Below, in pieces: positions 2,833-24,008 of a stretch of DNA of 50,821 nt. The notes beneath the pieces were generated by a model, which searched no databases, was not told the DNA's origin, and saw only the letters and a list, made by a program, of their open reading frames with translations. This DNA comes from an uncultured Nitrospinaceae bacterium. GTDB lineage: Bacteria; Desulfobacterota; Desulfobacteria; Desulfobacterales; UBA11574. Every line of letters starts with the position of its first letter. Position 1 is the first letter of the stretch. A program made the translations under genes and the position numbers. The DNA lies in NCBI GenBank assembly GCA_964195835.1, contig CAXMTB010000004.1, positions 1 to 50,821 of the forward strand, given 5' to 3'.

Positions 2833-2848
2833 TTATAAATTTGAAGCA

Positions 2849-4030: not shown

Positions 4031-5209
4031 TCAAAGGGCTCTCTCGGCAGCCTCTTCTTTTGTTTTGCAATCAATGCAATGCATCGTAACAGGTCTCGCT
4101 TTGAGACGAGCAAAGGAAATATCTTCACCGCACTTTTCACAAACTCCAAAAGTATTATTTTCAATACGGTCAAGAGACTTTCTAATCTTCTTGATAAGTT
4201 TGTTTTCTCTATCCCTTATTGAATAGTCGGAATTTTCTTTCCAGTCGTCTTTTAAGAATGGGACAAATTTACTTATAATTCCAATTGCTCTAAACTTTTT
4301 TCCTCCTGCACTATCATCTTCAACTTCTAAAACAAGGCCCCCGCTATTTCCGAAAACTACAGGACAATCCAATATAATAGTCTTGTAAATTTCATTCTTA
4401 CCAGCAACCACACCCTTCCTTAGCAATGGTCTTTTAATATCAATTTCAGGACTAATTGAAAGCGATGTTGGATATCCAAATATGTATACTTCGTTTCCCA
4501 CAAGAACATCTTCGAATTTCTTTGTCGATGGCTCACTTAGTTGAACACTTGACCTTGGACCACTTATTTTCTTGACAGCCTTTTTATAATATCTAATTTG
4601 GTATCCACCATCCTTGTTTTTACTTACCTTTCCAAGTTCTACCGCAGCAATGTCACGAAATTTATTGTATAATATCAAATTCGCTTTATTCAGTGCTTCA
4701 AAATCTACACTTAGCTCGCTCGCCGCCTTTTCGTTTAAATCGGGTGCGTAGGATATTAGTATTGCCTTTTTGCTTTTAAGTTTTAGCATCTGCGAAAGAA
4801 TATAAAGTTCAGTAATTTTATTTATAAACGATGTGTTATCCGGAACGAGGCTTGTTATTTCATCTTTCTCATTCTGACTCATCGTTCCAAAAAAGGACAA
4901 ATGTTTTAATTTCTTATCAAATGATAATTTCCGTAGAAGGTGTGCAGGTGGACGCAAATTTTTTGGCAAATCGGATAAACTAACATAAGTATTTTCAAAT
5001 AAGACATGCCTTGCAGTAACCAGATAGTATTTACCGGCATGTCTGTAAAAGACGCCACTTCCTGTAGCATGTTTAGTCATTATTAGCACGGGATAAGCCA
5101 AATTATTATCAGGTATCGCCCTGCGGCCTAAAGCTTTTCCTGAAAAAACCAAGATAGCGAATATCGAGGCGATCATAATAAGTTTTGGCCTTGAGCATGT
5201 GAGGTTCAT
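4031..5209 (-). CDS. Trypsin-like serine protease (Trypsin_2 type) with an N-terminal hydrophobic anchor or signal and a C-terminal DksA/TraR C4 zinc finger
   Basis: Catalytic motifs TARHV (His), RDIAAVEL (Asp) and VFGNSGGLV (Ser). The C-terminus LDRIENNTFGVCEKCGEDISFARLKARPVTMHCIDCKTKEE fits zf-DksA/TraR. I prefer the start at the ATG at 5209 (MNLTCSRPKLIMIASIFAILVF), which is preceded by GGAGGGAGG. The ORF track extends to 5272. Confidence 0.75.
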   Translation of the reverse strand: MNLTCSRPKLIMIASIFAILVFSGKALGRRAIPDNNLAYPVLIMTKHATGSGVFYRHAGKYYLVTARHVLFENTYVSLSDLPKNLRPPAHLLRKLSFDKKLKHLSFFGTMSQNEKDEITSLVPDNTSFINKITELYILSQMLKLKSKKAILISYAPDLNEKAASELSVDFEALNKANLILYNKFRDIAAVELGKVSKNKDGGYQIRYYKKAVKKISGPRSSVQLSEPSTKKFEDVLVGNEVYIFGYPTSLSISPEIDIKRPLLRKGVVAGKNEIYKTIILDCPVVFGNSGGLVLEVEDDSAGGKKFRAIGIISKFVPFLKDDWKENSDYSIRDRENKLIKKIRKSLDRIENNTFGVCEKCGEDISFARLKARPVTMHCIDCKTKEEAAERAL

Positions 5210-5429
5210 CAGCCTCCCTCCTTTTGGTATTCGGGTAAAGATTGAACTCAAGATACCTTGCCATAAGTACAACCTGAAACCGAGTCTCGTTCAATACATA
5301 TATCGTGTTTCTTACAAAATTGCAAAAAAGGCAAACCCGGTGAAAAGGATTTGCCCTTATTGAAAAATGATACCCCCATTTTCATATCAAATAGTCATGC
5401 GGCATGCACAAATTCTGGTGAATCACTTT

Positions 5430-5642
5430 TTATTCTAATGGTGCTTTGCCCGAATCGACATGGGCTTTTAATTCTTTAAGGATCATTTTTAATTCTTTTT
5501 GACGATTAGCCCTTATCTCTGACCAAATCTCTTGACAGGACTTGCATTCAGATGCGTCCACCATATAGTTGTCATATCGATAAAGGCTTTTTGATATTAT
5601 TGTAATAGTTTCCATGAGATTGTAATTGATATTTTTCAGCAT
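5430..5642 (-). CDS. Small hypothetical protein (~70 aa, predicted helical, CxxC)
   Basis: ORF 5430-5672. The internal start MLKNINYNLMETI is preceded by AAGGGGGTGG. I recognise no family. Confidence 0.5.
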   Translation of the reverse strand: MLKNINYNLMETITIISKSLYRYDNYMVDASECKSCQEIWSEIRANRQKELKMILKELKAHVDSGKAPLE

Positions 5643-5976
5643 TGGTTCCACCCCCTTTCTCCTGCCAGGCACACCGCATAACTATAATTTATATAAATAA
5701 AGATCTGTTAATAATAATCCCCTTCTGGACCAGGTGGAATAGAGGATAATCAATAGAAGACCAAGGTTAAAGCATGAAGTGCGAATCGAGAGTAAGGTCA
5801 GTAGAATAAGAATTGTTAAACAATGGAAACCAAATCGAGGTGGAGGGCAGGTTTCAAGAAAAAACATAATGTTAAATCCTTAATAATGTCAAGAAAATTA
5901 AATATATTTACCACTTTGTGGTGTCGATTGGTGGGATGAATCGATTGAAATAAGGGGTGGGCGTGATTAAAGATAT

Positions 5977-6066
5977 CTTGCCAGTATCAACACCATTCAC
6001 AACAACAATTGATATACAGATATCATATAGTTCTGGCGTCAAGTATTGTCAAATCATCTCCGTCCA
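5977..6066. repeat. Direct repeat copy 2 (pairs with 2721-2832); contains TGATAT-acag-ATATCA inverted core
   Basis: See copy 1. It lies ~200 nt downstream of the integrase stop codon. Confidence 0.85.
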
Positions 6067-6260
6067 CAAACACTCTATGAGCCGCTGTAAGGCCGTATAC
6101 GGGGCGATCTCTGTTTAGTCCAACCCAAGCATGGGCATATATGGCCCGTAGCTGCAACCTACATAAACCATTGGGAAAATAACCACTGAAAAAGCTCCAT
6201 CAGTGTATTTTGAAATTTCCTATCCCTTAAATCGTCTCTCAGATGTGGCGTGTAAATTTA

Positions 6261-7493
6261 TTACCCCTCAACAGCTTCTGGCTGAGTCTGTTTTTCTTTT
6301 TCTTTGTTTGAGGCTTTCATACTGTCTTCAAGTTTCTTAACAGCATCTTTAAGGTTCTTACTGGCCAAATGGCTATATCTCTCAGTCATTGCCATGGTTG
6401 AGTAGCCCAAGAGTTCCTTGACAGTGTAGAGGCTTTCTCCACTTTGGACAAGCCAAGAGGCAAACGTATGACGGAGTGTATGGAAATACGCCTTCTGACG
6501 TGGGTCGTCAATGCCATTATTGAAGCCAAGATCTTTTACAGCTCTCCCGAATGCATTTGAAACTTCTTTGATCATACCACCTTTTCTATTCTTAAATATA
6601 AGACTTGTTGGTGCGGCTTTCTCCTTAGATGAAAATATTTCACGTACTTTCTCTGTCATATGAGCAGTTCTATTTAGACCACCCTTAGAATCCATTACTC
6701 TTATTGTGCCTTCATCGCAGTCTATACAGCTCCAAGTTAGCTTGAATATTTCTCCAGCCCTCAGGCCGCAATGAAGGGAGATACAGGCAATTTCGTAGAG
6801 TTGTTGGCTTCGAACTATAAGGTCTTCCAGTAACAGTTGGGCTTCCTCTTGTTTCAGGAATCGTTCCCTTTTATTATCCACCTTCGGTCTGGTGACCTTT
6901 TTTGTAGGTGACTCACCAGCAAATATCTCGTTCTTAATAGCATGATTGAACACTTGCCTGACTACCGCAAAGGCATACTGGATAGATCGAGCAGACCTTC
7001 CTGCATCTGCCAAATTTTTCTTGATCCGTTCAAGGTGGAAGGGACGAATATCCTTAAAAGGCATCTTGCCGATCACAGGTTCTATCCAAAGCCTATGTAA
7101 GCTGTCTTCCCTTTGGTATGACCTCCAACCTTTATTGACCTTGGCTTCAGGAAAATACCGCTCTCTGAAATAATCTGAAAAGGATAGGGTTTCGTTTTCA
7201 ATTCGTTTTTTTTCCAATCGTTCCTGCTCTCGTCTTTCATTCTCAAAAGCACGTTGCTCAGCTAAGGTCTGAGGCCCTTCACCAGTCAGATGAGCTTTTC
7301 TAAGGTCTGCAAGAACAAGGGAAGCCTTTTTTGCATTCCAGCCCTCACTTGACCATCCTATTACCTCTTCCTTTAGTTTTCCGTTTAACCGATACCGAAT
7401 ATAAAAATGGCGGTCAGGCTTACCATTGACCTTACGTTTTTTTTCCTTGTACCTTACTCCGGGAAACTGAGTTGGATACTTTTTCGATGACAT
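6261..7493 (-). CDS. Tyrosine-type site-specific integrase (phage/ICE integrase family)
   Basis: C-terminal catalytic signature LHCGLRAGEI...HTLRHTFASWLVQSG...LLGYSTMAMTERYSHL (R..HxxR..Y). I prefer the start MSSKKYPTQFPGVRY at 7493, which has an AGGAGG RBS. The ORF track extends to 7586. Confidence 0.9.
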   Translation of the reverse strand: MSSKKYPTQFPGVRYKEKKRKVNGKPDRHFYIRYRLNGKLKEEVIGWSSEGWNAKKASLVLADLRKAHLTGEGPQTLAEQRAFENERREQERLEKKRIENETLSFSDYFRERYFPEAKVNKGWRSYQREDSLHRLWIEPVIGKMPFKDIRPFHLERIKKNLADAGRSARSIQYAFAVVRQVFNHAIKNEIFAGESPTKKVTRPKVDNKRERFLKQEEAQLLLEDLIVRSQQLYEIACISLHCGLRAGEIFKLTWSCIDCDEGTIRVMDSKGGLNRTAHMTEKVREIFSSKEKAAPTSLIFKNRKGGMIKEVSNAFGRAVKDLGFNNGIDDPRQKAYFHTLRHTFASWLVQSGESLYTVKELLGYSTMAMTERYSHLASKNLKDAVKKLEDSMKASNKEKEKQTQPEAVEG

Positions 7494-7627
7494 AAAACCT
7501 CCTATAGCCCCACAATAGCCCCACATTTTACGGGTTTTCAGGGGAAGTCTTAGGAAACTTATTGCATATAACCTATTGAATGTCAATGCAAATATGATTT
7601 AAGGGAAATGTAGGGAAACTATATTGA

Positions 7628-8993: not shown

Positions 8994-10772
8994 ATGAAAC
9001 TGAGCAAAAAACTCATATTGACCACCTTGTGTACGGTCCTATTGCCGCTTGTAATCGTAACGACGGTATCCCTTTGGTATATCACCGGGCAATTCCGCAA
9101 CCTGTATGTCGATTCGGCTCAGGGGCATCTTCGGGCTGGAGCGGAAAAACTCTCGGGATATTTTGCACAGCGTGTTTCTGAGGTTTCCGCTTACGCCAAC
9201 ACTTCCCTGATACGCACCATGGACTGGCAGGAAATCGGACCATTTTTGCATAAGGAGTTTAAGCGCTATAATGGAGCGTATGAAAAGCTCTTTCTGGGAG
9301 CGCCAAACGCCAATTACTATGTGACATCAGGAGGCAATCCAGCCTATGGCGGATTGGCCAGTTTTGACGATGCAAACCCAAAAGCCAAGCTGAAATCCAT
9401 CGCCAAACGTAACTACTGGCAATACCTGGTGGGCAACAATCCCATGGCGGATACACGGACCTATGTATCGGATCCCATCATCTCATACACCACCGGTGTC
9501 CGTCAGGTGGTGGTCGGTGCTACTATTTTATCCGAGTCGGGCAACAGGATCCTGGGCATGGTGGGCGGAACAATACAATGGAATGTTATCGAATCGCTGA
9601 TCAACGAAGTTCAAGACATAATTCTAAAAGATTTCGGCAGTTTGGCAAAAGTATGTCTGGTCGAACATAACGGCATTTACGTGTACCATTGGGATCCTGC
9701 TAAAGCCATACATCTCAAACTGAACAATAATGGCGAACCCATCCTCAATGAGATCGGTGAAAAGGTCGCTGTGCGGATGAAGATTACCGAGGAGCCATCC
9801 AAAGAACTGGCTCTGATCGGCAAAGAAATGATCCAAGGTCGAGAGGGCTTTGCTTTCTTTACCGATCCGGAGCTTGGTCAGGAGATGGCCATCATATTTG
9901 CGCCCGTACGATCGGCCAATTATTCCATGGCAATGGTCGTCCCAAAGGTTCAGATTCTATCTTCGCTAAAATACCTTCGATGGTTCTTTGTCGCAATTGC
10001 CCTGGTCTCTATCTTGCTTGTTATGGTGATTTATTTGTCGGTGGCCAAAAGAATTACCCACCCTATTGAAGCATTGAGCATAGCGGCTAAGAATTTGGCA
10101 AAAGGAAACTGGCAAACACACATTTCTCCCAATGGAAGTGATGAAGTCCGTGATCTAACTTTGGCCTTCGATGAAATGACCTCTTCTTTAAAAAAACGTG
10201 AAGCGGCTTTAAAAGAGAGTGAAGCCCGATTTCGGGCCATTTTTGAATCGACATCGGACTGCATTCTGGTTTGGGACAAAAAATACAACTGCCTGTTTGC
10301 GAATCAGGCTGCAACACATCATTTATTAACAGCGCGCGATAATATATCGGGCAAAAATATAAGGGATGTTCTGGACCATATACCGGATCTTGCGAATTCC
10401 TGGGTTCAACGCATCGACAAGGTCTTTGAAAAAGGTGAAGGATTGAGGGCCGAAGATGCTGTTTTTATGAACGGCAAAACCGTTTACAATGAATCTGTCT
10501 TTTCCCCCATAAGAAATGCTGAAAAACATGTTATTGCCGTTGGTATCGCGTTTCGCGATATTACCGAGAGAAAAGAGGCAGCGGAAAAAATTGTCCAGCA
10601 CAACAAGGAAGTATCAGAAGCCAACACACGCTTCGAAGTGCTGGTGGCAAACACAACCGAAAGGGAGAAACGGATGCTTGAACTTAAGCAGGAAGTCAAT
10701 GATCTGCTTGTGTCAGCTGGAAAAGAGATGAAATACAGCGCGCCCAAGAAGGTGGAAGAGCTGCTCAACTAA
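8994..10772 (+). CDS. Membrane sensor protein with TM, Cache-like periplasmic domain, TM, HAMP, PAS and coiled coil, but no transmitter or output domain
   Basis: 592 aa. TM1 is LILTTLCTVLLPLVIVTTVSLWYI and TM2 is FFVAIALVSILLVMVIYLSV. The HAMP region reads PIEALSIAAKNLAKGNW...VRDLTLAFDEMTSSL and the PAS region reads SEARFRAIFESTSDCILVWD. The C-terminus is a heptad-rich tail only. Confidence 0.8.
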   Translation: MKLSKKLILTTLCTVLLPLVIVTTVSLWYITGQFRNLYVDSAQGHLRAGAEKLSGYFAQRVSEVSAYANTSLIRTMDWQEIGPFLHKEFKRYNGAYEKLFLGAPNANYYVTSGGNPAYGGLASFDDANPKAKLKSIAKRNYWQYLVGNNPMADTRTYVSDPIISYTTGVRQVVVGATILSESGNRILGMVGGTIQWNVIESLINEVQDIILKDFGSLAKVCLVEHNGIYVYHWDPAKAIHLKLNNNGEPILNEIGEKVAVRMKITEEPSKELALIGKEMIQGREGFAFFTDPELGQEMAIIFAPVRSANYSMAMVVPKVQILSSLKYLRWFFVAIALVSILLVMVIYLSVAKRITHPIEALSIAAKNLAKGNWQTHISPNGSDEVRDLTLAFDEMTSSLKKREAALKESEARFRAIFESTSDCILVWDKKYNCLFANQAATHHLLTARDNISGKNIRDVLDHIPDLANSWVQRIDKVFEKGEGLRAEDAVFMNGKTVYNESVFSPIRNAEKHVIAVGIAFRDITERKEAAEKIVQHNKEVSEANTRFEVLVANTTEREKRMLELKQEVNDLLVSAGKEMKYSAPKKVEELLN

Positions 10773-10832: not shown

Positions 10833-11033
10833 AGCTTCAGGTATGATTAAATTTTTGACTGGAAGCTGTCTGAGTGAATTAGGGATCGTTTTGAAAGAAC
10901 CATAGGCGATTAAGCTTTATGAATGAAACCCTTTGTTAAAGCAGAGACTTTTATGAATAGCATAGGCAGGTTCTTTCATTACGAGCCCTTATTCACGAGT
11001 TCTTTCAGCAAAAATTTAATCATACCTGAAGCT
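10833..11033. repeat. ~200 bp palindromic MITE-like element (family A/B)
   Basis: Outer arms are agcttcaggtatgattaaattttt and aaaaatttaatcatacctgaagct. Inner arms are ctgagtgaattagggatcgttttgaaagaacc and ggttctttcattacgagcccttattcacgag. The core tagggatcgtt..gaaagaac is shared with 17457-17570 and 28330-28645. Confidence 0.8.
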
Positions 11034-11085: not shown

Positions 11086-12024
11086 ATGTCCTTAACCCTT
11101 TACTGGATGCATTGCGGTGGATGCGGCGGAGATACTCACGCCTTGATCAATGCCCACTCTCCTGATTTTCCTGAGCTTTTTGATTCACTTGATATTCAGC
11201 TTCTTTGGCAACCTTCGTTATCAAACATCACTGCAAAAGAACATCATGATCTTGTTGATAAGATGCTTTCCGGCGAGCAACAGTTAGACATTCTTTGTGT
11301 TGAAGGTGCTGTTGTACGAGGTCCTTCAGGAACGGGTATGTTTGAAGCCATAGAAGGCAGGCCCAAAAAAAACATTTTGGCCGGTCTTTGTACCAAAGCA
11401 AAGTTTGTGGTGGCTGTGGGTACCTGTGCCAGTTTCGGTGGAATCAGTGCAGAATGTGAAATTGAAGCCAGCGGTTTGCAGTTCCTCAAACAAAGAAAAG
11501 GCGGTTTTCTGGGTGAATCCTTTAAATCCCAAAGCGGTATGCCCGTCATTAACTTGCCTGGCTGCCCCTGCCATCCATCGATAATGACAGGGGTATTAAC
11601 TGCACTGGTCCATGAAAAACCGTTAGCCCTTAACCGATACAATTCTCCACTTGAATGGTATGGCCTTCTGGTTCATCAGGGTTGTACGCGGAATGAATAC
11701 CACGAATACCGGGTTGAAGACAGCATTTTTGGTGAAAAAGGGTGTATGTTTTTCCATCTGGGTTGTCGCGGTCCGCTCGCCTTTGGATCATGCAACAAAA
11801 TCCTGTGGAATGGACGGAGTTCTAAAACCCGTGTCGGCGTACCCTGTTTTGGATGTACGCTTCCAGACTTTCCACAATCTTCGCCCTTTTATGAAACACC
11901 AAATATTGAAGGCATTCCTGATGAACTCCCTGACGGCGTGGATCGAGCTCACTATATGGCTTACAAGGCTATGGCGGCCGCAGCAGCTCCTGAAAGACTG
12001 AAAAAGCGAAAAACAGAGGTGTAA
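11086..12024 (+). CDS. [NiFe]-hydrogenase small subunit, cytoplasmic (no Tat signal); sensor-type
   Basis: It starts directly at the proximal-cluster motif (MSLTLYWMHCGGCGGD). Further cluster motifs are GTCASFGG, PGCPCHP, HQGCTRNE, GCRGPLAFGSC and PCFGCT. There is no RRxFxK leader. Confidence 0.9.
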   Translation: MSLTLYWMHCGGCGGDTHALINAHSPDFPELFDSLDIQLLWQPSLSNITAKEHHDLVDKMLSGEQQLDILCVEGAVVRGPSGTGMFEAIEGRPKKNILAGLCTKAKFVVAVGTCASFGGISAECEIEASGLQFLKQRKGGFLGESFKSQSGMPVINLPGCPCHPSIMTGVLTALVHEKPLALNRYNSPLEWYGLLVHQGCTRNEYHEYRVEDSIFGEKGCMFFHLGCRGPLAFGSCNKILWNGRSSKTRVGVPCFGCTLPDFPQSSPFYETPNIEGIPDELPDGVDRAHYMAYKAMAAAAAPERLKKRKTEV

Positions 12025-12027
12025 AAT

Positions 12028-13566
12028 TTGAATAATCCAAGAACGAAAATAATAAATGCTCCGTTGAATCGAGTTGAGGGAGACCTTGAAATTCGCGTAC
12101 GTCTGGAGGACGACAGGGTATCCGAAGCATGGAGTGTCGGGGTGATGTTCCGCGGCATTGAAAACATGCTAAAAAATCGTGGGCCCCTTGATGGATTGGT
12201 CATCACGCCACGTATTTGCGGCATTTGCAGTACGGCTCATTTGACCGCTGCCGCTAAGGCATTGGATGCCATTTCAGGGGCCAAAGTGCCGGCCAATGCC
12301 ATTATTGTTCGCAATCTAGCGCTCATGGCGGAACATGTTCAAAGTGATATGCGTCACGGATTCCTGATGTACATGGCAGACTTCGCGAATTCAGCGTACA
12401 GCAAGCGGCCACTTTATGATGAAGCGGTAAAACGCTATGAGCCGTTCAAAGGAAAGACGGTTATTGATGTCATTAAGCGTACGAAAGAGATACTGGAAAT
12501 GGTTGCGATTTTTGGAGGACAATGGCCCCATTCGTCATATATGGTGCCCGGAGGTATCGCTTCGAACCCCAATATGAATGATATCATGCAATGCAAATAC
12601 CTGATCGACAAATTTTCATCCTGGTATGAAAAAAGAATCCTCGGATGTTCTCTTCAAAGATGGTTGAACATTCAAAACGGTGCGGATCTGGACGCGTGGC
12701 TGGATGAAAGCGAATCTCATCATAACAGCGAACTCGGATTTTTTATCCGATATGCCCGTGATATCGGTCTTGATAAAATCGGGCAAGGCCACGCCAATTT
12801 TATTAGCTTCGGTCAACTGGATCTGCCCGAAAATTCAAAAGTCATGGGTCGGAGCCAAAACTCACATTTTCTAATTCCGGCAGGCTTTGCTCGAAATACA
12901 GAGATTGAACCGTTTGATCAGAAAAAAATCTTCGAACATGTCGCATTTTCCTGGTATGCAGACGATAACGGCGGCAAACACCCTTTTTCAGGTGAAACAC
13001 ATCCTTACGCTACAGGCGAAGAAAGCGAAAAATATTCCTGGACTAAAGCGCCACGATATGATGGCACGCCCGCTGAAACCGGGCCGTTGGCAGAAATGAT
13101 CATATCTGGACATCCGCTTTTCACAGATCTGGTCAATACAATCGGCTCCAGTGCTTTTGTCCGTGAACTTGCCCGTCTGACTCGGCCTGCAGAACTCATT
13201 CCTGCAATGAAACAATGGATCATGGAATTGAATCCTCAAGAAAAGTTTTATGCGCATTCTCCGGACATCACCGACGGTGAGGGATTTGGATTGACCCAGG
13301 CCTCGCGTGGTGCCCTTGGCCATTGGGTCAGCATCTCGGACAAAAAGATCAACCACTATCAGATTATTACACCTACAGCTTGGAACGGATCTCCTCGAGA
13401 CGCCGACAGCATCAGAGGACCTTGGGAGGAAGCACTTATTCACACACCGGTGAAAGATTCGGAAAACCCCGTAGAAATCGGACATGTGGTACGGTCGTTT
13501 GACCCCTGCCTGGTATGTGCGGTGCATGCAATCCAGGGGAAGAAAGAAAACATATGGAAAATATAG
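12028..13566 (+). CDS. [NiFe]-hydrogenase large subunit
   Basis: N-terminal Ni-Fe ligand motif RICGICSTAH and C-terminal motif DPCLVCAVH, followed by a 12 aa tail (AIQGKKENIWKI). TTG start 3 nt after the small-subunit stop, with an AGAGGTG RBS. Confidence 0.9.
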   Translation: MNNPRTKIINAPLNRVEGDLEIRVRLEDDRVSEAWSVGVMFRGIENMLKNRGPLDGLVITPRICGICSTAHLTAAAKALDAISGAKVPANAIIVRNLALMAEHVQSDMRHGFLMYMADFANSAYSKRPLYDEAVKRYEPFKGKTVIDVIKRTKEILEMVAIFGGQWPHSSYMVPGGIASNPNMNDIMQCKYLIDKFSSWYEKRILGCSLQRWLNIQNGADLDAWLDESESHHNSELGFFIRYARDIGLDKIGQGHANFISFGQLDLPENSKVMGRSQNSHFLIPAGFARNTEIEPFDQKKIFEHVAFSWYADDNGGKHPFSGETHPYATGEESEKYSWTKAPRYDGTPAETGPLAEMIISGHPLFTDLVNTIGSSAFVRELARLTRPAELIPAMKQWIMELNPQEKFYAHSPDITDGEGFGLTQASRGALGHWVSISDKKINHYQIITPTAWNGSPRDADSIRGPWEEALIHTPVKDSENPVEIGHVVRSFDPCLVCAVHAIQGKKENIWKI

Positions 13567-13569
13567 AAA

Positions 13570-14010
13570 ATGAATACAAAAAAACGAATTATCTGCGTCG
13601 GCAACCGATACAGGCCCGAGGATTCGGCCGGGCCTATGGTTTATGATCAGCTTGTGAGCGACAGGCTTCCAAAAGATATAGAAGTGATTGACGGTGGATT
13701 GGCCGGGCTGAATCTGCTCCGCTTCATACATGGTGCAGATCGCGTGGTTTTTATTGATGCCGTGAATGGTTTCAGGCCCTCCGGCGGTGTGATCGTTCTC
13801 GATGCAAAAGATGCATCGCGACATGCAGATACGATCTTCGGTCATAGCGCGGGGATAGCCTATTGTTTACGGGTATTGCCCGAAGTACATGACGGCAAAT
13901 TACCTGAAATTTTCGTTGTCGGAATCGAAGGCACCACAGACCCTGATAAAATTTTAAGAGCTGCTGAAATAAGTCTTAAAATTGCTACCCAGGGGTATTC
14001 CTTGAACTGA
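13570..14010 (+). CDS. Hydrogenase maturation endopeptidase (HyaD/HybD/HupD family)
   Basis: 146 aa with ICVGNRYRPEDSAG, DGGLAGLNLL, FIDAV and GHSAG, matching the HybD metal-binding pattern. It starts 3 nt after the large-subunit stop. Confidence 0.85.
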   Translation: MNTKKRIICVGNRYRPEDSAGPMVYDQLVSDRLPKDIEVIDGGLAGLNLLRFIHGADRVVFIDAVNGFRPSGGVIVLDAKDASRHADTIFGHSAGIAYCLRVLPEVHDGKLPEIFVVGIEGTTDPDKILRAAEISLKIATQGYSLN

Positions 14011-14020
14011 TTAAAGAAAA

Positions 14021-16357
14021 ATGAGCGATATAGCATCTGACAATCTGATCGACAGACTCCATAAAGAGAACGAAATATTGCGTGAAGAAATCCGTGTTTC
14101 CAGAAGGGCAGCGGATATCACGGCTGATCTTGTGGTTCAACAGTTTGCAAAGGCCGATGAGATTCTTATGGAACTCGAGGAAAAGGCAGATAAAGAAAAG
14201 CACCTCAAGAATCAGCTGAAGAAGCAACTTGAAGAAGCTGTTCATCGTGAGCAGGAACTCAATCGAGAAAAAAATCGGCTTCGTGATATGCAAATTGCAT
14301 CCATCAACATGATGGAAGACCTTGCGTTATCCCAACAGATTGCCGAAGCAGCCACCATTGCCAAAAGCGAATTTTTAGCCAACATGAGTCACGAAATCCG
14401 TACACCCATGAACGGGGTCATTGGGATGACGAACCTCCTTTTGGATACGCAGCTGAACGCTGAACAGGGTGAGTTTGCGGAAACCATTAAAAACAGCGCA
14501 GATTCACTGTTGATAATTATTAATGACATTCTCGATTTTTCCAAAATAGAAGCCGGCAAGCTTGAACTGGAAATCATTGATTTTGATTTAAGGGGCACTC
14601 TTGATGAAGTGGGAGATCTTATGGCCTTAAAGGCGCATGAAAAGGGTTTGGAATTTGTCTCCAATATTCATCGACATGTCCCACTTTTATTGTTTGGAGA
14701 CCCCGGCAGATTGCGTCAGATATTGATAAACTTGGTCGGCAATGCGATCAAGTTTACTGAAAAAGGTGAAATAGCCATCCACGTTTCTTTAGAAGAAAAT
14801 GATAGAACACATGCCACCATCCGATTTGAAATCGTCGATACAGGAATCGGTATCCCCCATGATCGAATGGAGCAGCTTTTCAAGCCTTTCTCCCAGCTGG
14901 ACAATTCCAGCACCCGCGAGTTCTGCGGAACAGGTCTGGGGCTCACTATATCCAAACAGCTTTCTGAAAAGATGGGTGGACGGATCGGTGTAGAGAGCCA
15001 CGATGGCAAAGGCTCTATTTTTTGGTTTACGGCTGTATTTGAAAAGCAGCTTGAACGATCGAGGAGAAGTGAGATTCTTCCAGGAGACATCAGAAATAAA
15101 TACATCCTGATTGTCGATGATAATGCAACCAATCGACATGTTTTAAGGGAGCAGTTGAAGTCATGGGGCTGCCGATTTAATGAAGCATCCAGCGGTAAAG
15201 AAGCGCTGAGTAAAATGCGACAGGGAATCGATGATAATCGCCCGTTTGATCTTGCCATACTTGATATGCAGATGCCTGAAATGGACGGAGAAGCGCTTGG
15301 GCGAAAAATCAAACAGGATTCTGATTTGAAAAATACGATACTTGTATTGATGACTTCAATAGGTAAACGTGGTGATGCCAAGCGACTCGAAAAAATCGGT
15401 TTTGTCGGATATCTCACGAAGCCGGTCAAACAGTCACAGCTTTATGATTGTCTTGTAACGGTTTCCGGACTGCGGAATGAAACAGCATTGGTACAACCGA
15501 TGTCTATTTTCACCCGACACACCATTTGCGAGAAACAGCAGCGAACGGTTCGCATTCTTATGGCTGAAGACAACATCACAAACCAAAAGGTGGCCTTGAG
15601 CACCTTAAATAAATTCGGATACAGTGCTGATGTCGTTAAAAATGGCAAAGAAGCGGTCGAAGCTCTCAAAAAGATTCCATATGATATTGTTTTGATGGAT
15701 TGCCAAATGCCAGAAATGGATGGTTACGAGGCAACAGATGAAATCCGAAAATGGGAGAAAAAACTTAAAGACGGATCGGATCATTGTTCAGATTCAAACC
15801 TTGAATATACGGCCGGATCGAAAAGAGTTCCAATTATTGCAATGACGGCTCATGCGTTGAAAGGTGATCGCGAAAAATGTCTCAATGCCGGCATGGATGA
15901 CTATATCGCCAAACCGATCCATCCAAAGAAACTGTGTGATGTGATTGAAAAGTGGCTCAACGAACCGGAAGGGGCACATGAGGCGGAAATTGTCCATGAA
16001 TCATTACCAGAAGACGATATTTTTGATAAAAACAGTTTTCTCGACCGGCTCTTGGGTGATGAAGATCTCGCAAAAGAGATCATTAAAGGGTTCATTGAGG
16101 ATTCTCTGCGTCAAATCGGTACCATAAAAGAAGCGCTTGAGAACAGGGACACGAATGTGATATATGGTAGAGCTCACTCCCTCAAAGGTGCCGCTGGAAA
16201 CATCAGTGCAACGGCCTTGAAAGATCTTGCGTATCAAATTGAAATTGCAGGCGAAACAGGAGATCTGATTAAAGCGGCTTCACTGATCCCGAAACTTGAT
16301 GAACAATTCGAGGTATTGAAAAAAAGTTTGACCCTAAAATTACTATCGGAAAATTAG
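14021..16357 (+). CDS. Hybrid histidine kinase: N-terminal coiled coil, HisKA, HATPase_c, REC, REC, Hpt; no recognisable sensor domain or TM segment
   Basis: H-box [16 protein letters not shown] and G-box [15 protein letters not shown]1 reads [11 protein letters not shown]...[11 protein letters not shown] and REC2 reads [11 protein letters not shown]...[11 protein letters not shown]...DDYIAKP. Hpt reads [13 protein letters not shown]. Confidence 0.9.
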
Positions 16358-16366
16358 GAGTGTTTA

Positions 16367-17278
16367 ATGAGAATATTAATTGCTGAAGACGATGTTACAT
16401 CCCGTCTTATTCTGGAAAACATGTTGACCAAGTGGGGCTACGATGTCGTCTCTGCTACCGATGGGAATGATGCGTGGAAAAAGCTTCAAGAAGAGGATTC
16501 GCCAAAACTGGTCATCCTTGATTGGATGATGCCGGGTATGGAGGGCATCGAGATTTGCCGAAAGATTCGTGAAAATTCAAAAAGTGAAGACCAATATACA
16601 TATGTAACGTTGCTTACTGCAAAAGAATCAAAGGAGAACATCGTCACCGGCATGGATGCCGGTGCAGATGATTACATAACCAAACCTTTTGACATGCATG
16701 AACTTCGTGTGCGCGTCCGGGCCGGCCAACGAATCGTTCAGTTGCAGTCTGAATTGCTGGAAGCTAAAAAAGACATGGAAATACAATCGCGGACAGATCC
16801 GTTGACAGGCGTTCTGAATCGCCGGGCTATTCTATCGCAGATTGACAATGAACTTTCCAGGGCAAAAAGAGATAACGCGCATATAAGTATTTCAATGCTC
16901 GACCTCGACCATTTTAAGAAAATCAATGATACTTTCGGGCACCTTGCAGGTGATGCAGTACTTCGAGAAAGTATGAATCGGGTCGAAGAAACCATCAGAA
17001 CATATGATGCTGTCGGAAGATTTGGCGGAGAGGAATTTATTGTTGTCTTGCCTGGAGCAAAAGAGGCAGATGCATTTATCATTGCCGATAGGATTCGAAT
17101 AAAAATAAATGAAAAAAATGCAAATATTGACGGGGTAAGCATCCCTTTTACAATCAGCCAGGGTCTGGCAACCTGTAACGGAGAATTGACCGCGGATGAG
17201 TTGATTGCAAAGGCAGACGAAGCCTTGTACCGCGCCAAACAAAACGGCCGCAACTGTGTTGATAAGGCTTCTCTTTAG
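16367..17278 (+). CDS. Response regulator with REC-GGDEF architecture (PleD/WspR-like diguanylate cyclase)
   Basis: REC reads ILIAEDD...ILDWMMPGMEG...DDYITKP. The GGDEF domain has an intact GGEEF active site and an RxxD I-site (RTYD) five residues upstream. Confidence 0.9.
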   Translation: MRILIAEDDVTSRLILENMLTKWGYDVVSATDGNDAWKKLQEEDSPKLVILDWMMPGMEGIEICRKIRENSKSEDQYTYVTLLTAKESKENIVTGMDAGADDYITKPFDMHELRVRVRAGQRIVQLQSELLEAKKDMEIQSRTDPLTGVLNRRAILSQIDNELSRAKRDNAHISISMLDLDHFKKINDTFGHLAGDAVLRESMNRVEETIRTYDAVGRFGGEEFIVVLPGAKEADAFIIADRIRIKINEKNANIDGVSIPFTISQGLATCNGELTADELIAKADEALYRAKQNGRNCVDKASL

Positions 17279-17829: not shown

Positions 17830-19503
17830 ATGGATATTGAGCGTGAAAAAATCGATTTTGATGTGCTTTTTGTGGGCGGTGGTCCCGCAAGTCTTGCAGG
17901 CGCCATCCGGCTAATGCAACTCGCCAAGGAAAAAAATATGACTCTTGAGGTGGCGCTGATCGAAAAGGGTGCGGAAATAGGATCTCATGCATTGAGCGGC
18001 GCTATTCTGAATCCGATTGCCTTAAAGGAGCTGCTTCCGAATTATTTGGAAAAAGAGTGCCCCATCGAATCAACCGTAAAAGAAGATGGGTTCTATTTTT
18101 TGACTCGAAAAAAACACTACCGCGTTCCGATAGTCCCCAGGTATATGCACAATAAAGGCTTCTCTATCATCAGTCTTTCCAGGTTCACCAGGTGGCTGGG
18201 AAGCATCGCCGAAGACCTCGGCGTAAATATTTTTCCGGGTTTCGCAGGCAAGGAAGTTCTCTATGCTAAAGATCAGAATACGATTATCGGCGTACGCACC
18301 GGTGACAAAGGTCTTGACAAAGATGGACGTCCCAAGAGCAATTTTGAACCTGGAATCGATTTGCTGGCCAAAGTGACGGTGTTCGGCGAAGGGGCAAGGG
18401 GAAGCCTGACAAAGGATATCTCACAAAAAATAAATCTGTTTCCCGATAAAATGCCCCAGGTATTTGAATCCGGCATCAAAGAAGTGATTCAGCTTCCGGA
18501 AAATAATTACTTTACGTTAAGCGACACAAACGACATTCACACCCTTGGATATCCACTGGGCTTGGATATACCGGGGGGCGGGTTTATTTATGAGATTAAA
18601 AACAACATGGTGGCCATCGGCTTTCTTATGGGACTCAGCTACCAGAACCCCATGCTGGATCTATATGACGAATTCATAAAATTCAAACAGCATCCTTTTG
18701 TAGCAGACATCATTAAAAACGGAAAAGTCTTGGAACAGGGTGCAAGAACCGTTTCATCCGGAGGCTATTTCACCATCCCCGGGTTAGCCGTAGACGGCGG
18801 TGTTTTTGTGGGTGGATGTGCAGCAATGCAGAATACGCCGGGTTTAAAGGGGGTGCATTTGTCCATGAAGTCGGGTATGCTGGCGGCAGAGGCGATCATA
18901 AACGCTCTTGAAAAGAATAATTTTACACAAGAAACCCTCGGGGTTTATTCTGAATTGTTTGAAAACAACTGGGCAAGCAAGGAAATTTATGAGGCCAGGA
19001 ATTTTTCCCAAGCCCTTTCAAAAAAGGGCCCGATAAAATGGATTCACATCGGTGCTCAATATATCACCAAGGGACGGGGTTTCGTCGATAAAATGCCGAT
19101 CCAACCCGATTCCGATACGTTAAATCCCGCAAAAGAGAGCCATGAGGATGTTCGTTCGGCGCCTGAAAAGAAAACGCTGGACGGCGTTTTGTTTGTAGAC
19201 AAACTTACCGGTGTTTATCTATCCAAAACCATGCACAGGGAGGATCAGCCCGGTCACATTATCGTTCACGATAAAGACCTTTGCGTCAATGAATGTTTTA
19301 CAACCTATAAATCTCCATGCACAAGATTCTGTCCGGGCGATGTATACGAAATCGAAACCGACCCAAAGACATCAACACGTCGACTCAAGCTGAATCCATC
19401 CAATTGTCTGCACTGCAAAACTTGTGATATAAAGGATCCGTACGGAAATATAACATGGACATGCCCGGAAGGAGGAGAAGGACCGGGATATACAATGCTA
19501 TAA
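17830..19503 (+). CDS. Electron-transferring-flavoprotein:quinone oxidoreductase (ETF-QO)
   Basis: FAD motif DVLFVGGGPASLAGA and C-terminal 4Fe-4S region CPGDVYEI...NCLHCKTCDIKDP..NITWTCPEGGEGPGY. Confidence 0.9.
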   Translation: MDIEREKIDFDVLFVGGGPASLAGAIRLMQLAKEKNMTLEVALIEKGAEIGSHALSGAILNPIALKELLPNYLEKECPIESTVKEDGFYFLTRKKHYRVPIVPRYMHNKGFSIISLSRFTRWLGSIAEDLGVNIFPGFAGKEVLYAKDQNTIIGVRTGDKGLDKDGRPKSNFEPGIDLLAKVTVFGEGARGSLTKDISQKINLFPDKMPQVFESGIKEVIQLPENNYFTLSDTNDIHTLGYPLGLDIPGGGFIYEIKNNMVAIGFLMGLSYQNPMLDLYDEFIKFKQHPFVADIIKNGKVLEQGARTVSSGGYFTIPGLAVDGGVFVGGCAAMQNTPGLKGVHLSMKSGMLAAEAIINALEKNNFTQETLGVYSELFENNWASKEIYEARNFSQALSKKGPIKWIHIGAQYITKGRGFVDKMPIQPDSDTLNPAKESHEDVRSAPEKKTLDGVLFVDKLTGVYLSKTMHREDQPGHIIVHDKDLCVNECFTTYKSPCTRFCPGDVYEIETDPKTSTRRLKLNPSNCLHCKTCDIKDPYGNITWTCPEGGEGPGYTML

Positions 19504-19509: not shown

Positions 19510-21207
19510 CTATAATCTTCCTTTTTTTAATATCGCGATAAGAAGCCAGAATCCCATAATTGCAGCGGTTGAAAACAACACAATTCCAATCAGGGATATC
19601 CCGTAAAAAAGGGGCGGGATTTCGGAAATAACGATAAGTGCTGAACCAATAATCAGTGCTGCAATAATGATTGAAAATGATATTCTGTTGCTGACCCTGT
19701 CATGGGTCGCCAGCATGGTATCAAGCCCTTTATGCTCCATTTTTAAAGACAGTTTCTGAAGTCGGACCAGCCGTGTAATCTCAAGCACATCTTTAGGAAA
19801 CTGCTGAGCAAATTGCAGCATTTGCGATCCGAGCTGGATCATATCATCCGTGATTCTTCCGGGATAGAACCGTTCAAATTTAACTCGTTTTATGAAAGGT
19901 TCAGCTTGAGCGATCATGTCAAAATCCGGATCGAGTGCCAGGGCTACTCCCTCCACCATCGTCAACGTCTTCATCATAAGGAAGATATCCGGAGCAATCA
20001 TAAGACGATGGCGTGACGCCAGCTCAAGCAAATTGTTCAATACCTTTCCGATCTCAATATCCTTCAAAGGCTTGTGAAGATGCCGGCCCATGAAGTCTGA
20101 TACATCCTTTTCGAGCTGTCTAATATGAGGCTCTTCTTCCCAGTGCGTCAGTTTTAAAAGCACCTGAGTCACCCTTGCTTCGTGCCGATGGATAACGTTG
20201 CCTATTAAATCAACAAAATCTTCTCTGGTCTGACGATCCACTGCCCCGGTCATACCGAAGTCGATGAGACAGATGACATTTTCAGGAAGTATAAAAATAT
20301 TTCCCGGGTGAGGGTCCGCATGAAAAAAACCGAGATCAAACACCTGTTTTAGATAAAAATCGGCACCACGGGCAGTAACCTTCTTCCGGTCGAGGCCTGC
20401 CTCTTCAAGCCTGTCGATTTCAGATACTTTGATGCCGTCCATCAGTTCCATGGTGAGAACATGCTCGGTTGACATGTTTCTGAATACCGTTGGTATATAA
20501 ATGTTAGAATCGTCCAAAAAGTGGCGGGCAAATCGTTCCATACTGCTGGCTTCAATGGTGTAATCAATTTCCCGTTCAAGAGTTCTGGCAAATTCTTCCA
20601 CGATTTTAACCGGTCGATACCGGGCCATCTCTTCTATGTTTCGCTCTACCAGTGTTGCCAAATGAAGCATAATTTCAAGATCGATTTCTATGATCTTTTT
20701 GATGCCGGGTCGTTGAATCTTTACCGCCACCATTTCACCATCCTTTAATCTGGCTTTGTGTACCTGGCCGATGGAGGCAGCGGCAACCGGTGTTTCGCTA
20801 AAAAAAACAAAAAGTTCTTCAAGGGGTTTACTGAACTCCGATTCAATGGTCCTTTTTGCTTCATCGAAAGAAAAGGAGGGGACTTTATCCTGAAGTTTGG
20901 AAAGTTCTTGTGTAAAATCAATCGGAATTAGATCAGGGCGGGTGGAGAGAATCTGCCCGAGTTTTACATAGGTGGGGCCAAGTTCTTCAAAGGCCATTCT
21001 CACCCTTTCTGCCCTTGAAAGTTTTTCAAGGCGCTTGGGCCGATTTTTTGAAATGAGCTGAAGCCCGACCTCTATGTACTGATCGATCTTCAGGAGTTCT
21101 ATTAGGTCGCCAAAACCATACTTAAAAAGAATCGTCAGTATCTGACGGTATCGATTAAAATTTCGGTAAGTTCGGCCTACGACACCGATTTTTCTTATAC
21201 TCAGCAT
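19510..21207 (-). CDS. ubiB: UbiB/ABC1 (AarF) atypical kinase family protein with C-terminal TM helices
   Basis: Motifs ELGPTYVKLGQILSTRPDLIP, AAASIGQVHKA and FFHADPHPGNIF. Confidence 0.85.
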   Translation of the reverse strand: MLSIRKIGVVGRTYRNFNRYRQILTILFKYGFGDLIELLKIDQYIEVGLQLISKNRPKRLEKLSRAERVRMAFEELGPTYVKLGQILSTRPDLIPIDFTQELSKLQDKVPSFSFDEAKRTIESEFSKPLEELFVFFSETPVAAASIGQVHKARLKDGEMVAVKIQRPGIKKIIEIDLEIMLHLATLVERNIEEMARYRPVKIVEEFARTLEREIDYTIEASSMERFARHFLDDSNIYIPTVFRNMSTEHVLTMELMDGIKVSEIDRLEEAGLDRKKVTARGADFYLKQVFDLGFFHADPHPGNIFILPENVICLIDFGMTGAVDRQTREDFVDLIGNVIHRHEARVTQVLLKLTHWEEEPHIRQLEKDVSDFMGRHLHKPLKDIEIGKVLNNLLELASRHRLMIAPDIFLMMKTLTMVEGVALALDPDFDMIAQAEPFIKRVKFERFYPGRITDDMIQLGSQMLQFAQQFPKDVLEITRLVRLQKLSLKMEHKGLDTMLATHDRVSNRISFSIIIAALIIGSALIVISEIPPLFYGISLIGIVLFSTAAIMGFWLLIAILKKGRL

Positions 21208-21819: not shown

Positions 21820-22974
21820 TTATTTCAACCTTCCGATAACAGCACCGGCAATGGTGTTTTTCTGAATCTCCTTGGTGCCCTCATAAATTTCCGTGATCTT
21901 GGCATCCCGGTAAAAGCGCTCGACTTCATATTCTGCCATATATCCGTACCCGCCAAGCAGTTGGATGGCTTCATCGGCAACTTCCACCGCAGTGCGGGCA
22001 GCATACATCTTTGCCATGGATGTTAGTTTTGGATCGATACGCCCCTGATCAAAATTCCAGGCAGCCTTGTAAGTAATTAGCCTGGAAAGTTCAATTTTTG
22101 TAGCCATATCTGCCAGTTTGTGTTGCGTGACCTGGAACTGTGCAATCTTTTTACCGAACTGTTCTCTCTGTTTTACATAGGCCAACGCACGATCAAAAGC
22201 GCCCTGGGCAATTCCAAGTGCCTGGGCGGCAATTAGTATCCTGCTTTCATCAAAAAATTCGAGAACATGATAGAACCCTTTTCCCTCTTTTCCGATAAGA
22301 TTTGAAACCGGAACACGAACATCTTTAAAATTTACCTCTGATGTGGACATCATGTGGATCCCCATCTTTTCACCCACATCCATCGCAGAAACTCCGTTCC
22401 GGTCTGCCTCCACCAGGATCAAGCTTATTCCACGGTAGGTTGGTTTGCTTTCCGGATCGGTCTGGCAGAGAACACAGTAATAGCCGGCAATATCACCATT
22501 AGTAATGAATATTTTTGACCCGTTTATGACCCATTCGCCCCCATCCTTTTGCGCTGTCGTATCCATCCTTGTAATATCGGAACCGTGATCAGGCTCTGTA
22601 AACGCTCCGGCGGAAAGCATTTTACCCTCTGCAACGGGCGGCAGAAATTTTTCTTTAAGGGCGTCGCTGCCAAAACGCAAAACGCATTCAGATGCAAAAC
22701 CGGCAAGTATCACCGCACTGCCGATGGTGGAATCCCTGCTGCAGAACTCTTCTGCAACCAAAATGTTCTCAATAACACCGAGCCCTTGCCCGGAATATTG
22801 TTCCGGAAAGTGAATACCGATGAATCCCAGATCGGCGGCTTTTTTCCATATCTTTTCCGGAAATTCGTGCTTTTTGTCCAACTCAAGAGCAAGATCTTTG
22901 TCAAATTCGCCTTTGGCAAAATCCCTGGCAGCTTTCTGGATTTCTTTTTGCGATTTTGTCAACTCAAAATCCAT
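21820..22974 (-). CDS. Acyl-CoA dehydrogenase
   Basis: Motifs MDFELTKSQKEIQ..., AFTEPDHGSD, ITNG, YEGTKEIQ. I prefer the start at 22974, preceded by AAGGGGA. The ORF track extends to 23022. Confidence 0.9.
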   Translation of the reverse strand: MDFELTKSQKEIQKAARDFAKGEFDKDLALELDKKHEFPEKIWKKAADLGFIGIHFPEQYSGQGLGVIENILVAEEFCSRDSTIGSAVILAGFASECVLRFGSDALKEKFLPPVAEGKMLSAGAFTEPDHGSDITRMDTTAQKDGGEWVINGSKIFITNGDIAGYYCVLCQTDPESKPTYRGISLILVEADRNGVSAMDVGEKMGIHMMSTSEVNFKDVRVPVSNLIGKEGKGFYHVLEFFDESRILIAAQALGIAQGAFDRALAYVKQREQFGKKIAQFQVTQHKLADMATKIELSRLITYKAAWNFDQGRIDPKLTSMAKMYAARTAVEVADEAIQLLGGYGYMAEYEVERFYRDAKITEIYEGTKEIQKNTIAGAVIGRLK

Positions 22975-23243
22975 TTTATTCTCCATCCCCTTAAAAGTTT
23001 TATTTTTTTCGAAATTTAACATATGCTCCAGCCTATTGCAAGGAGTTTGAGATGGTCGGGCATCCCCGACTATCTTGATTTCTTAAATGCTGCAAACCTA
23101 AAAGAAACTTGACGGAACCTTTCAACTGGAATATTTACACAAAAATGATTATAGTTTAAATATGATGGTTTCGTAAGAGTTAAAAATAAATGTTAATTTT
23201 TAAATAAGACTTTAATAATATTTTAGAAAGGAAATTAGATACC

Positions 23244-23993: not shown

Positions 23994-24008
23994 CCCCTTT
24001 TGAAATCA

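Follow-up and report, generated by a model that had tools for sequence, protein, structure and literature searches.

A putative H2-sensing [NiFe] hydrogenase locus with a hybrid histidine kinase and a REC-GGDEF protein, probably of HydDB group 2c

Molecular hydrogen (H2) is a central currency of anaerobic communities. To our knowledge, the only H2-sensing pathway that is understood runs from the hydrogenases HoxBC or HupUV through HoxJ or HupT to HoxA or HupR, and induces hydrogenase genes in aerobic H2 oxidisers; it provides the precedent of a [NiFe] hydrogenase that signals through a bound kinase (HoxBC with HoxJ). The database HydDB also lists a [NiFe] group 2c, 'diguanylate cyclase-linked (putative)', for which an H2-sensing role linked to cyclic dimeric guanosine monophosphate (c-di-GMP) has been predicted. 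Group 2c has been reported mostly from aquatic sulfate reducers and methylotrophs, and its L2 consensus was given as SFDxCLVCTVH (PMC4853749). Here, a five-gene locus from contig CAXMTB010000004.1 is compared with these systems. The 'window' is the whole stretch of 50,821 nucleotides (nt) that was analysed, and gene positions are counted within it. We regard it as probable, though well short of certain, that the products of the locus form a cytoplasmic complex that senses H2 and acts on c-di-GMP by way of a phosphorelay, and that they are not an energy-conserving hydrogenase.

Domains were called with Pfam and NCBIfam on the window proteins. The five genes, all on the + strand, span positions 11086-17278 and are separated by only 3, 3, 10 and 9 nt, so that the open reading frame (ORF) coordinates confirmed the tight co-directional cluster described in a first-pass annotation of this DNA. 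They encode, in order, a [NiFe] hydrogenase small subunit of 312 amino acids (aa; 11086-12024, Pfam Oxidored_q6 and NiFe_hyd_SSU_C), a large subunit of 512 aa with a TTG start (12028-13566, Pfam NiFeSe_Hases, PF00374, 1.6e-90), a HycI/HyaD-type maturation endopeptidase of 146 aa (13570-14010, PF01750 and TIGR00072), a soluble hybrid histidine kinase of 778 aa (14021-16357, with HisKA, HATPase_c, two REC and Hpt domains in Pfam) and a REC-GGDEF response regulator of 303 aa (16367-17278, Pfam REC 3-117 and GGDEF 143-296). The count of five genes had been right, and the third, left unnamed at that stage, is the maturation protease according to Pfam and NCBIfam. Three relatives share the TTG start of the large subunit, together with its GAGGTG ribosome-binding site. 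The gene order of the window recurs on independent contigs from several phyla, and the arrangement is therefore not due to chance.

Following a proposal of the first-pass annotation, the large subunit was placed in a phylogeny. A neighbour-joining tree (200 bootstraps, group 1 rooted outside) was built from 88 large subunits, consisting of relatives of the window from genome and metagenome scans, annotated references and 50%-identity representatives. References from plasmid records included HoxBC, HoxJ, HoxA and HoxKGZ of pHG1, HupUV and HupSL of Bradyrhizobium, and Huc-like sequences of Mycobacterium, Thermus and Sphingopyxis. A scan of genome contigs with a single protein gave only 10 loci, and an alignment-based scan of metagenomes proved more productive. 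Bootstrap support was 88% for the clade of 33 sequences that contains the window (96% for the 2b clade), and this window clade joined 2a in 0 of 200 replicates. Identity of the large subunit was 42-44% to group 2a, 35-37% to group 2b and 29-33% to group 1, and a search of the Protein Data Bank (PDB) gave the uptake enzyme Huc (7UTD) at E=1e-136, the best group 1 enzyme at 1e-73 and group 3 at 1e-23 or weaker. By this placement the large subunit belongs to cytosolic [NiFe] group 2, and the window clade is separate from both the 2a uptake enzymes and the 2b clade. Its members come from Desulfobacterales (the nearest metagenome-assembled genomes (MAGs), 96% identity), Planctomycetota, Chloroflexi, Acidobacteriota, Elusimicrobiota, Riflebacteria, Thermoleophilia, Sulfuricella, Phaeospirillum, Magnetospirillum and Methylococcaceae.

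By synteny, taxonomy and motif, the window clade probably fits HydDB group 2c best. The L2 motif was rejected as a discriminator of 2c: the window has SFDPCLVCAVH, one substitution from the published consensus, and the clade consensus is SFDACLVCTVH, but 2a enzymes with SFDSCLVCTVH match the consensus too. Two observations concern the class itself. A neighbouring group of large subunits from metagenomes (L039, L041, L043-L046), 43-45% identical to that of the window, carries the L2 sequence SHDACLVCTVH, which is identical to a Thiomargarita sequence named 2c in PMC4853749. In the readable DNA downstream of these genes only a protease gene was seen, joined in two loci by hypA and hypB, and no transducer gene, and HydDB 2c may for this reason be heterogeneous. 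In a 2024 review (PMC11023054), the regulatory hydrogenases of Cupriavidus necator and Rhodobacter capsulatus are called 'group 2c'; as this conflicts with HydDB, where they are 2b, the naming was treated as a labelling slip, though one that could mislead searches for 2c.

Synteny was surveyed in a set of 100 loci by seed-domain annotation, with key cases confirmed by Pfam. In all 30 clade loci with readable downstream DNA, the large subunit or the protease is followed directly by a signalling gene, which always begins with a motif of ~45 residues. The transducer linkage spans at least eight phyla and extends down to 52% identity. The next step is more variable: among the 26 clade loci with a visible output, 12 have a c-di-GMP enzyme (GGDEF or HD-GYP-type), in the form of REC-GGDEF proteins (window, L001, L004, L006, L008, L100 and L101), REC-HD-GYP-type proteins (L017, L034 and L055) or a direct PAS-GGDEF fusion (L032 and L035), and the remaining outputs are single-domain REC proteins, further kinases or unannotated genes. 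The conserved synteny with a kinase and a GGDEF gene that the first-pass annotation had suggested surveying was thus found for the hydrogenase and its transducer, and only in part for the GGDEF partner. What is constant in the clade is a hydrogenase with a motif-bearing transducer; c-di-GMP is a frequent but not a universal output. By comparison, ~50 Huc-like loci contain DUF1641, NifU-like and NHL-repeat genes and have no transducer of the motif type after the hydrogenase, and none of these three kinds of gene was found in the window or in any clade locus.

A homologous module is present in a cultured organism, Paramagnetospirillum magneticum AMB-1 (L103; AP007255.1, 1179862-1197400), in the order small subunit, large subunit, HycI and motif-PAS-kinase-REC. 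Divergent genes there encode a REC protein, a REC-SpoIIE (PP2C) phosphatase and a STAS protein, a gene set that suggests an H2 input into a partner-switching cascade. In a sister locus from Sulfurimonas, a PAS-GGDEF-EAL gene follows the protease. As a separate observation, a second, group-1-like [NiFe] hydrogenase lies just upstream of the sensor-type one in L026 (380-5633), L027 (12-6474) and L102 (1-4315), and between the two hydrogenases stands a 990-aa fusion of an MMPL/RND-type membrane domain to a histidine kinase core, an unusual architecture. The sensor-type hydrogenase could regulate the neighbouring group-1-like enzyme in these loci.

The N-terminal motif of the transducer (14048-14170 on the + strand, kinase residues ~10-50 in the window) has the consensus L..EN..LR.EIRVaR.AaeITA.LVV.QFeeTe..L over ~45 residues. 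Its specificity was assessed on 5015 ORFs from the 100 loci, the window included, and a regular expression for the motif matched 29 of them, all directly after the large subunit or the protease in the window clade. Searched as a profile against 5.8 billion proteins, the motif gave 29 short hits, fragments of 47-90 aa. Three of these were examined (L100, L101 and L102), and all three stand right after the small subunit, the large subunit and, where present, the protease; L100 and L101 repeat the full gene order of the window, including the REC-GGDEF gene. The motif is also present in the Magnetospirillum AMB-1 and Methylococcaceae loci, and had no match in Pfam or PDB. It is followed by a coiled coil, kinase, two REC domains and Hpt in the window, and elsewhere by PAS-kinase, by GAF-kinase or, in L032, directly by PAS-PAS-GGDEF. 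As it is confined to neighbours of the hydrogenase and shuffled between outputs, the motif is a candidate input or docking element on the hydrogenase. A divergent version appears to head the Sulfurimonas PAS-GGDEF-EAL gene, for which hhalign gave a weak match of the N-terminus to the motif (E=1.6e-4, probability 50%). AlphaFold2 modelled kinase residues 1-250 with an uninterrupted helix from 2 to 145, running into the H-box His124, with a predicted local distance difference test score above 90 for residues ~10-100; the model was made from single-sequence input and is poor outside the helix.

Beyond the motif, the kinase consists of a coiled coil, HisKA (114-179), HATPase_c (226-338), a REC domain (362-476), a second REC domain from ~513 and Hpt (687-766). 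SHEIRTP occupies residues 123-129, with the H-box histidine at H124, and the receiver and Hpt motifs are readable in the translation. In the REC-GGDEF protein, GGEEF is at 220-224 and the RxxD I-site (RTYD) at 211-214, five residues upstream, which is the canonical I-site spacing. Pfam and the motif positions therefore upheld the first-pass description of both proteins, as a kinase with SHEIRTP, two REC domains and Hpt and as a REC-GGDEF protein with an intact active site and an I-site. The residues of a relay from H-box to REC, Hpt, REC and GGEEF are intact throughout, and the last protein is a predicted cyclase. Because it scored below the NCBIfam equivalog cut-offs for PleD and DgcR, it is not, on these models, an orthologue of either. 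Hydrophobic segments are absent from the kinase, where the Kyte-Doolittle mean over 19 residues peaks at 1.02, so the earlier statement that it has neither a transmembrane (TM) segment nor a known sensor domain was correct; the conserved, hydrogenase-specific motif at its N-terminus had been overlooked.

The cytoplasmic location of the hydrogenase follows from its small subunit. The ORF begins at the first start codon past an in-frame stop, with AGGAGG 8 nt upstream, its residues 1-16 are MSLTLYWMHCGGCGGD, and the protein aligns from the mature N-terminus of group 1 small subunits that bear a twin-arginine translocation (Tat) leader. Since the ORF cannot extend upstream and the alignment starts at the mature group 1 N-terminus, a Tat leader is excluded on reading frame and alignment, as had been claimed for a subunit starting at its proximal cluster motif. 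Domain searches found no cytochrome b, diaphorase, ferredoxin or hyp gene elsewhere in the window, which also supports the earlier remark that the first three of these are missing from the neighbourhood of the operon. With no Tat leader and no gene for an electron-acceptor partner, nothing suggests an energy-conserving role.

Cluster ligands were assigned by alignment of 24 clade small subunits with 11 of group 2a and with 2b and group 1 references. The medial cluster of the window protein would be held by C236, C254 and C257, with Lys247 at the fourth position, and the distal cluster by H197, C200, C220 and C227 (His and three Cys). The putative ligands of the proximal cluster are C13, C114 and C160 together with D16 and/or C10, and there is an extra C162. 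Among the 24 clade proteins, Cys13, Cys114 and Cys160 are invariant, Asp16, at the second canonical Cys position, is found in 23, Cys162 in 21 and Cys10 in 18. For the O2-insensitive enzymes of group 1h, a review describes a proximal cluster held by three Cys and one Asp; the proximal motif of the window clade recalls this cluster and may reflect a similar arrangement.

The large subunit has both pairs of Ni-Fe ligands, as first reported: RICGIC at 62-67, within the L1 motif RICGICSTAH (62-71), and DPCLVC at 492-497, within DPCLVCAVH (492-500) and the full L2 motif SFDPCLVCAVH (490-500). It retains a C-terminal extension of 12 residues (AIQGKKENIWKI), which is presumably cleaved off by the HycI/HyaD-type protease. 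A protease gene follows the large subunit in many clade members and is absent where the large subunit stops at the final His (L006-L008). In these three loci the extension and the protease have both been lost, as in HoxC, which counts in favour of a sensor. Ile66 lies between the first two Ni-ligand cysteines, corresponds to I62 of the narrowed HoxC gas channel and had been taken by the first-pass annotation as a mark of sensing. It did not hold up as evidence and was rejected: CGIC was found in every 2a, 2b and clade sequence examined, save for rare CGLC or CGVC variants, and is therefore shared with the 2a uptake enzymes.

The circuit had been called complete with five genes, a description that could not be maintained, as a further gene upstream probably belongs to the unit, judging by its conserved position and its C-terminal motif. 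This gene (8994-10772 on the + strand) encodes an output-less membrane PAS sensor of 592 aa (HAMP and PAS by Pfam, TM segments by hydropathy), with TM 3-32, a periplasmic domain of ~290 aa, TM 324-355, HAMP 350-400, PAS 412-528 and a C-terminal helical motif; neither Pfam nor NCBIfam found a kinase or other output domain in it. Its periplasmic domain gave a weak, dCache-like PDB match to the double-PDC sensor domain 3LI8 (E=0.013). In L001, L003 and L004, too, the sensor gene immediately precedes that of the small subunit, and genes with a different sensor part and the same C-terminus, PAS-only in L017 and MASE3-PAS in L018, L021 and L040, likewise adjoin the small subunit upstream, often with a gap of 3-33 nt. 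The shared C-terminal motif of ~52 aa (10614-10769 on the + strand, SEANTRFEVLVANTTEREKRMLELKQEVNDLLVSAGKEMKYSAPKKVEELLN in the window) has the pattern [DE]RE.RM[LVI].LK.E[VI]N.L and the longer consensus EVL..N..ERE.RM..LK.EVN.LL...G...KY. No Pfam model covers it, and among the 5015 ORFs the pattern matched nine, all immediately upstream of a clade small subunit. Output-less sensors accompany 6 of 12 transducers without a PAS domain and 0 of 14 with one, a difference (Fisher p=0.004) that is phylogenetically clustered and indicative only. Conserved position and motif point to a six-gene operon, upstream sensor included, as the ancestral unit. In L005, a relative with 66% identity, the gene upstream of the small subunit (1070-2494) has a HAMP domain and ends in AKSTLLATMSNQMEE, which resembles a kinase H-box region without the His; this gene may be a degenerate kinase remnant that replaces the output-less PAS sensor.

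These elements can be arranged into a mechanism. The small and large subunits, matured by the protease, would bind and slowly oxidise H2, leading to a redox or conformational change. The soluble hybrid kinase would read the state of the hydrogenase, with its N-terminal helix (~10-50) docked on the enzyme. The docking helix would be continuous, through a coiled coil of ~100 residues, with the dimerisation and histidine phosphotransfer helix that bears H124, and autophosphorylation would thereby be switched. The phosphoryl group would then pass through the REC and Hpt domains of the kinase to the REC domain of the last gene product, turning the GGEEF cyclase on and raising c-di-GMP, with feedback by c-di-GMP through the RxxD I-site. 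The upstream membrane sensor would join the complex, supplying in trans the PAS domain that related transducers carry in cis, together with a periplasmic input. In this scheme H2 is the presumed signal, the direction of the effect is as we infer it, the kinase motif and the sensor C-terminal motif are the predicted contact elements, and participation of the upstream sensor is suggested by its conserved position.

Several observations weigh against this scheme. In sequence, the large subunit resembles the uptake enzyme Huc of group 2a (42-44%) more than the 2b sensors (35-37%), and at several positions the hydrogenase departs from the latter: in the large subunit the second gas-channel position, F110 in HoxC, is Met114 here and Phe or Tyr in all six 2b sequences, and the L1 motif has His (CSTAH) where the 2b sensors have Gln (CSVSQ); in the small subunit the fourth medial ligand position is Lys247 against Cys in HoxB and HupU. 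The C-terminal extension and a dedicated protease are kept, as in catalytic hydrogenases. The co-occurrence of output-less sensors with PAS-less kinases is confounded by phylogeny. Scans for promoters and terminators performed at chance level and were not used, so that spacing and synteny are the sole basis for the operon structure. Finally, no experimental study of group 2c was found in the literature searched, which agrees with the first-pass statement that the group is uncharacterised.

The similarity to Huc raises the question of whether the locus encodes a functional uptake hydrogenase in the cytoplasm, like Huc or the cyanobacterial enzymes, that oxidises H2 for energy or reductant, with an acceptor encoded elsewhere and with a kinase and REC-GGDEF protein that either regulate it or answer to something else. 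Huc is the nearest solved relative, the extension, the protease and the L1 His are kept as in catalytic enzymes, the distal cluster is His-ligated like that of enzymes that pass electrons to partners, and a gene for an electron-transfer flavoprotein (ETF)-quinone oxidoreductase lies 550 nt downstream. We nevertheless consider this unlikely, given that the 2a accessory genes are present in almost all longer 2a loci and in no clade member, that the clade is phylogenetically separate from 2a, and that linkage to motif-bearing transducers, which holds in at least eight phyla and at identities as low as 52%, far exceeds what neighbourhood drift would leave. Adjacency to the ETF-quinone oxidoreductase is repeated only in the 96%-identical L001, and a REC-GGDEF protein is no transcription factor able to regulate the operon.

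The membrane sensor with its large periplasmic domain, and the PAS domains (common redox or ligand sensors) found in cis or in trans in most loci, would also fit a module for which redox or O2 status, or a periplasmic ligand of the dCache-like sensor, is the primary signal, and in which electrons from H2 merely set the redox state of a PAS partner, so that the output would report cellular redox or an H2-gated ligand. The unusual proximal motif, with its nearly invariant Asp16 and the extra Cys10 and Cys162 that recall group 1h, could be taken in the same sense. Little credence is given to this possibility, because many clade members have the hydrogenase and the transducer with no upstream sensor, which makes the hydrogenase the constant input, and because no cofactor-binding signature was identified in the PAS domain. 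Co-transcription alone leaves the direction of information flow undefined, and the kinase and cyclase might act upstream, controlling the activity or assembly of the hydrogenase post-translationally. Such a reversal seems very improbable: the transducer of the window consists of motif, coiled coil and kinase core, with nothing else that could serve as an input domain, the motif occurs in fusion with many output types while the hydrogenase is the constant partner, and in the 2b precedent the signal runs from hydrogenase to kinase. A cytoplasmic H2-sensing complex that acts on c-di-GMP through the phosphorelay is the reading preferred here. Its extension to the whole clade is offered tentatively and is open to considerable doubt. 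The clade would then represent a modular H2 sensor of three parts, present in at least eight phyla and held together by two coupling elements not described before: the N-terminal helix of the transducer, which would plug the hydrogenase into a hybrid kinase, a PAS-kinase or a PAS-GGDEF protein, and the C-terminal helix of the output-less PAS sensors, which would join the complex in trans and bring a second input, periplasmic in the window. Depending on the organism, H2 would control the synthesis or the degradation of c-di-GMP, CheY-like regulators or partner-switching phosphatases. In such a sensor, three Cys and one Asp may hold the proximal cluster of the small subunit.

The gap between the sensor gene and the small subunit is 313 nt in the window and 33 nt in L003, the difference being due to a nested inverted repeat in the spacer (10833-11033, no strand assigned), which was detected by a repeat search and is present as a single copy in the window. 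Its outer arms are perfect over 25 nt (10833-10857 and 11009-11033), and its inner arms of 28 nt match at 86% (10874-10901 and 10969-10996). L003 has no insert in the spacer, and L001 and L004 have a different palindromic insert with the termini GTGTCCATCCAT and ATGGATGGACAC. The repeat is probably an inserted palindromic element or an RNA hairpin, and the site resembles a hot spot at which small palindromic elements insert, or else a structured leader. An Rfam search gave no match, and a tRNA scan found no tRNA gene within the window.

Downstream of the operon, the ETF-quinone oxidoreductase gene (17830-19503 on the + strand) stands beside other fatty-acid oxidation and quinone genes, namely a UbiB/ABC1 kinase gene (19510-21207, - strand) and an acyl-CoA dehydrogenase gene in the same neighbourhood (21820-23022, - strand). 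An ETF-quinone oxidoreductase gene also adjoins the operon in L001 (96% identity), and no ORF was found within 350 nt after the operon of L004; with adjacency in L001 only, it was rejected as a conserved electron partner. Further along, a run of + strand genes (24000-28224) encodes histone-deacetylase-family, tandem-CBS, PrmA-like methyltransferase, metallo-beta-lactamase-fold and Sir2-family deacetylase proteins, uniting two different deacylase families in one string. At the other end, a frame of 461 codons cut by the window start (2-1384, - strand, MAKYDPTKQEDWQI...) looks like a formate-tetrahydrofolate ligase gene. Its G+C content is 0.56-0.68, compared with 0.31-0.44 in the next 2 kb and ~0.42 in the whole window, and the sharp break near 1250 could possibly reflect horizontal transfer or a chimeric assembly. 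A low-GC stretch (2000-7600, 0.35-0.37) contains, all on the - strand, genes for a Mut7-C RNase with a ubiquitin-like domain (2849-3598), a protein that has a DksA/TraR zinc finger at its C-terminus and gives a weak trypsin-like match (4031-5272) and a tyrosine integrase (6261-7586), and is possibly a genomic island just upstream of the sensor operon.

The locus adds to a predicted and uncharacterised class, HydDB 2c, and does not define a new one. What is added here are two conserved motifs, the clade-wide kinase linkage, a sixth gene and a cultured homologue in P. magneticum AMB-1, and with a defined clade, a candidate docking motif, a candidate third component and a cultured organism the hypothesis is now available in testable parts. 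The unusual ligand pattern of the small subunit is, in addition, a target for spectroscopy. If true, this would be a second widespread class of H2 sensor, different in kind from the HoxBC/HupUV pathway. If H2 is converted into c-di-GMP, or into other signals in relatives, interspecies hydrogen transfer would be tied to attachment, aggregation and motility, in groups that include sulfate reducers, Planctomycetota, Chloroflexi, magnetotactic bacteria and methanotrophs.

Compared with known systems, the terminal gene product resembles PleD/WspR-type REC-GGDEF proteins in its REC acceptor Asp, GG(D/E)EF site and RxxD I-site, but PleD has two REC domains against one in the window protein, whose cognate kinase is hydrogenase-linked. 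Among the [FeFe] hydrogenases, groups C and D (HydS type) are putatively sensory; according to PMC13104023 they are enzymes of low expected turnover coupled to PAS or signalling modules, and are in this respect alike. They belong to an unrelated enzyme family, however, and their PAS domain is fused to the hydrogenase polypeptide. With Mycobacterium smegmatis Huc (2a; 7UTD, 8DQV) the window shares CGIC, the extension with its protease and a Lys at the fourth medial position, whereas 2a small subunits have Gly at 10, Asn at 16 (11 of 11) and Gln at 197 (10 of 11) in place of Cys10, Asp16 and His197, and Huc loci carry DUF1641, NifU and NHL genes, have no kinase and fall in a separate clade.

The HoxBC-HoxJ-HoxA system of C. 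necator and the HupUV-HupT-HupR system of R. capsulatus are alike in that a Tat-less cytoplasmic hydrogenase stands beside a soluble histidine kinase; CGIC in L1 and the lack of an energy-conserving partner are also shared with 2b, and readout by a kinase is presumably the same in principle. The 2b enzymes differ in forming a separate clade at 35-37% identity, in a large subunit that ends at the last His, with no protease and with the L1 Gln and the Phe, where the window has an extension and protease, His and Met, and in a small subunit with a fourth medial Cys, which the window lacks, and a longer C-terminal tail. HoxJ is coupled through an N-terminal PAS domain and has an NtrC-type target, unlike the window, with its N-terminal helix motif, hybrid kinase and cyclase, and no sigma-54 activator of the HoxA type is adjacent to the window operon. 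The closest likeness is to HydDB 2c: the window hydrogenase is cytosolic, of group 2, neither 2a nor 2b, and co-encoded with a c-di-GMP enzyme, and it matches Desulfobacterales MAGs, with a Methylococcaceae MAG in the same clade. It differs from 2c in that a hybrid kinase and Hpt would pass the signal on to the cyclase, where 2c implies a direct fusion or adjacency, and in that the constant of the clade is a motif-bearing transducer, usually a kinase, with c-di-GMP enzymes in 12 of 26 loci.

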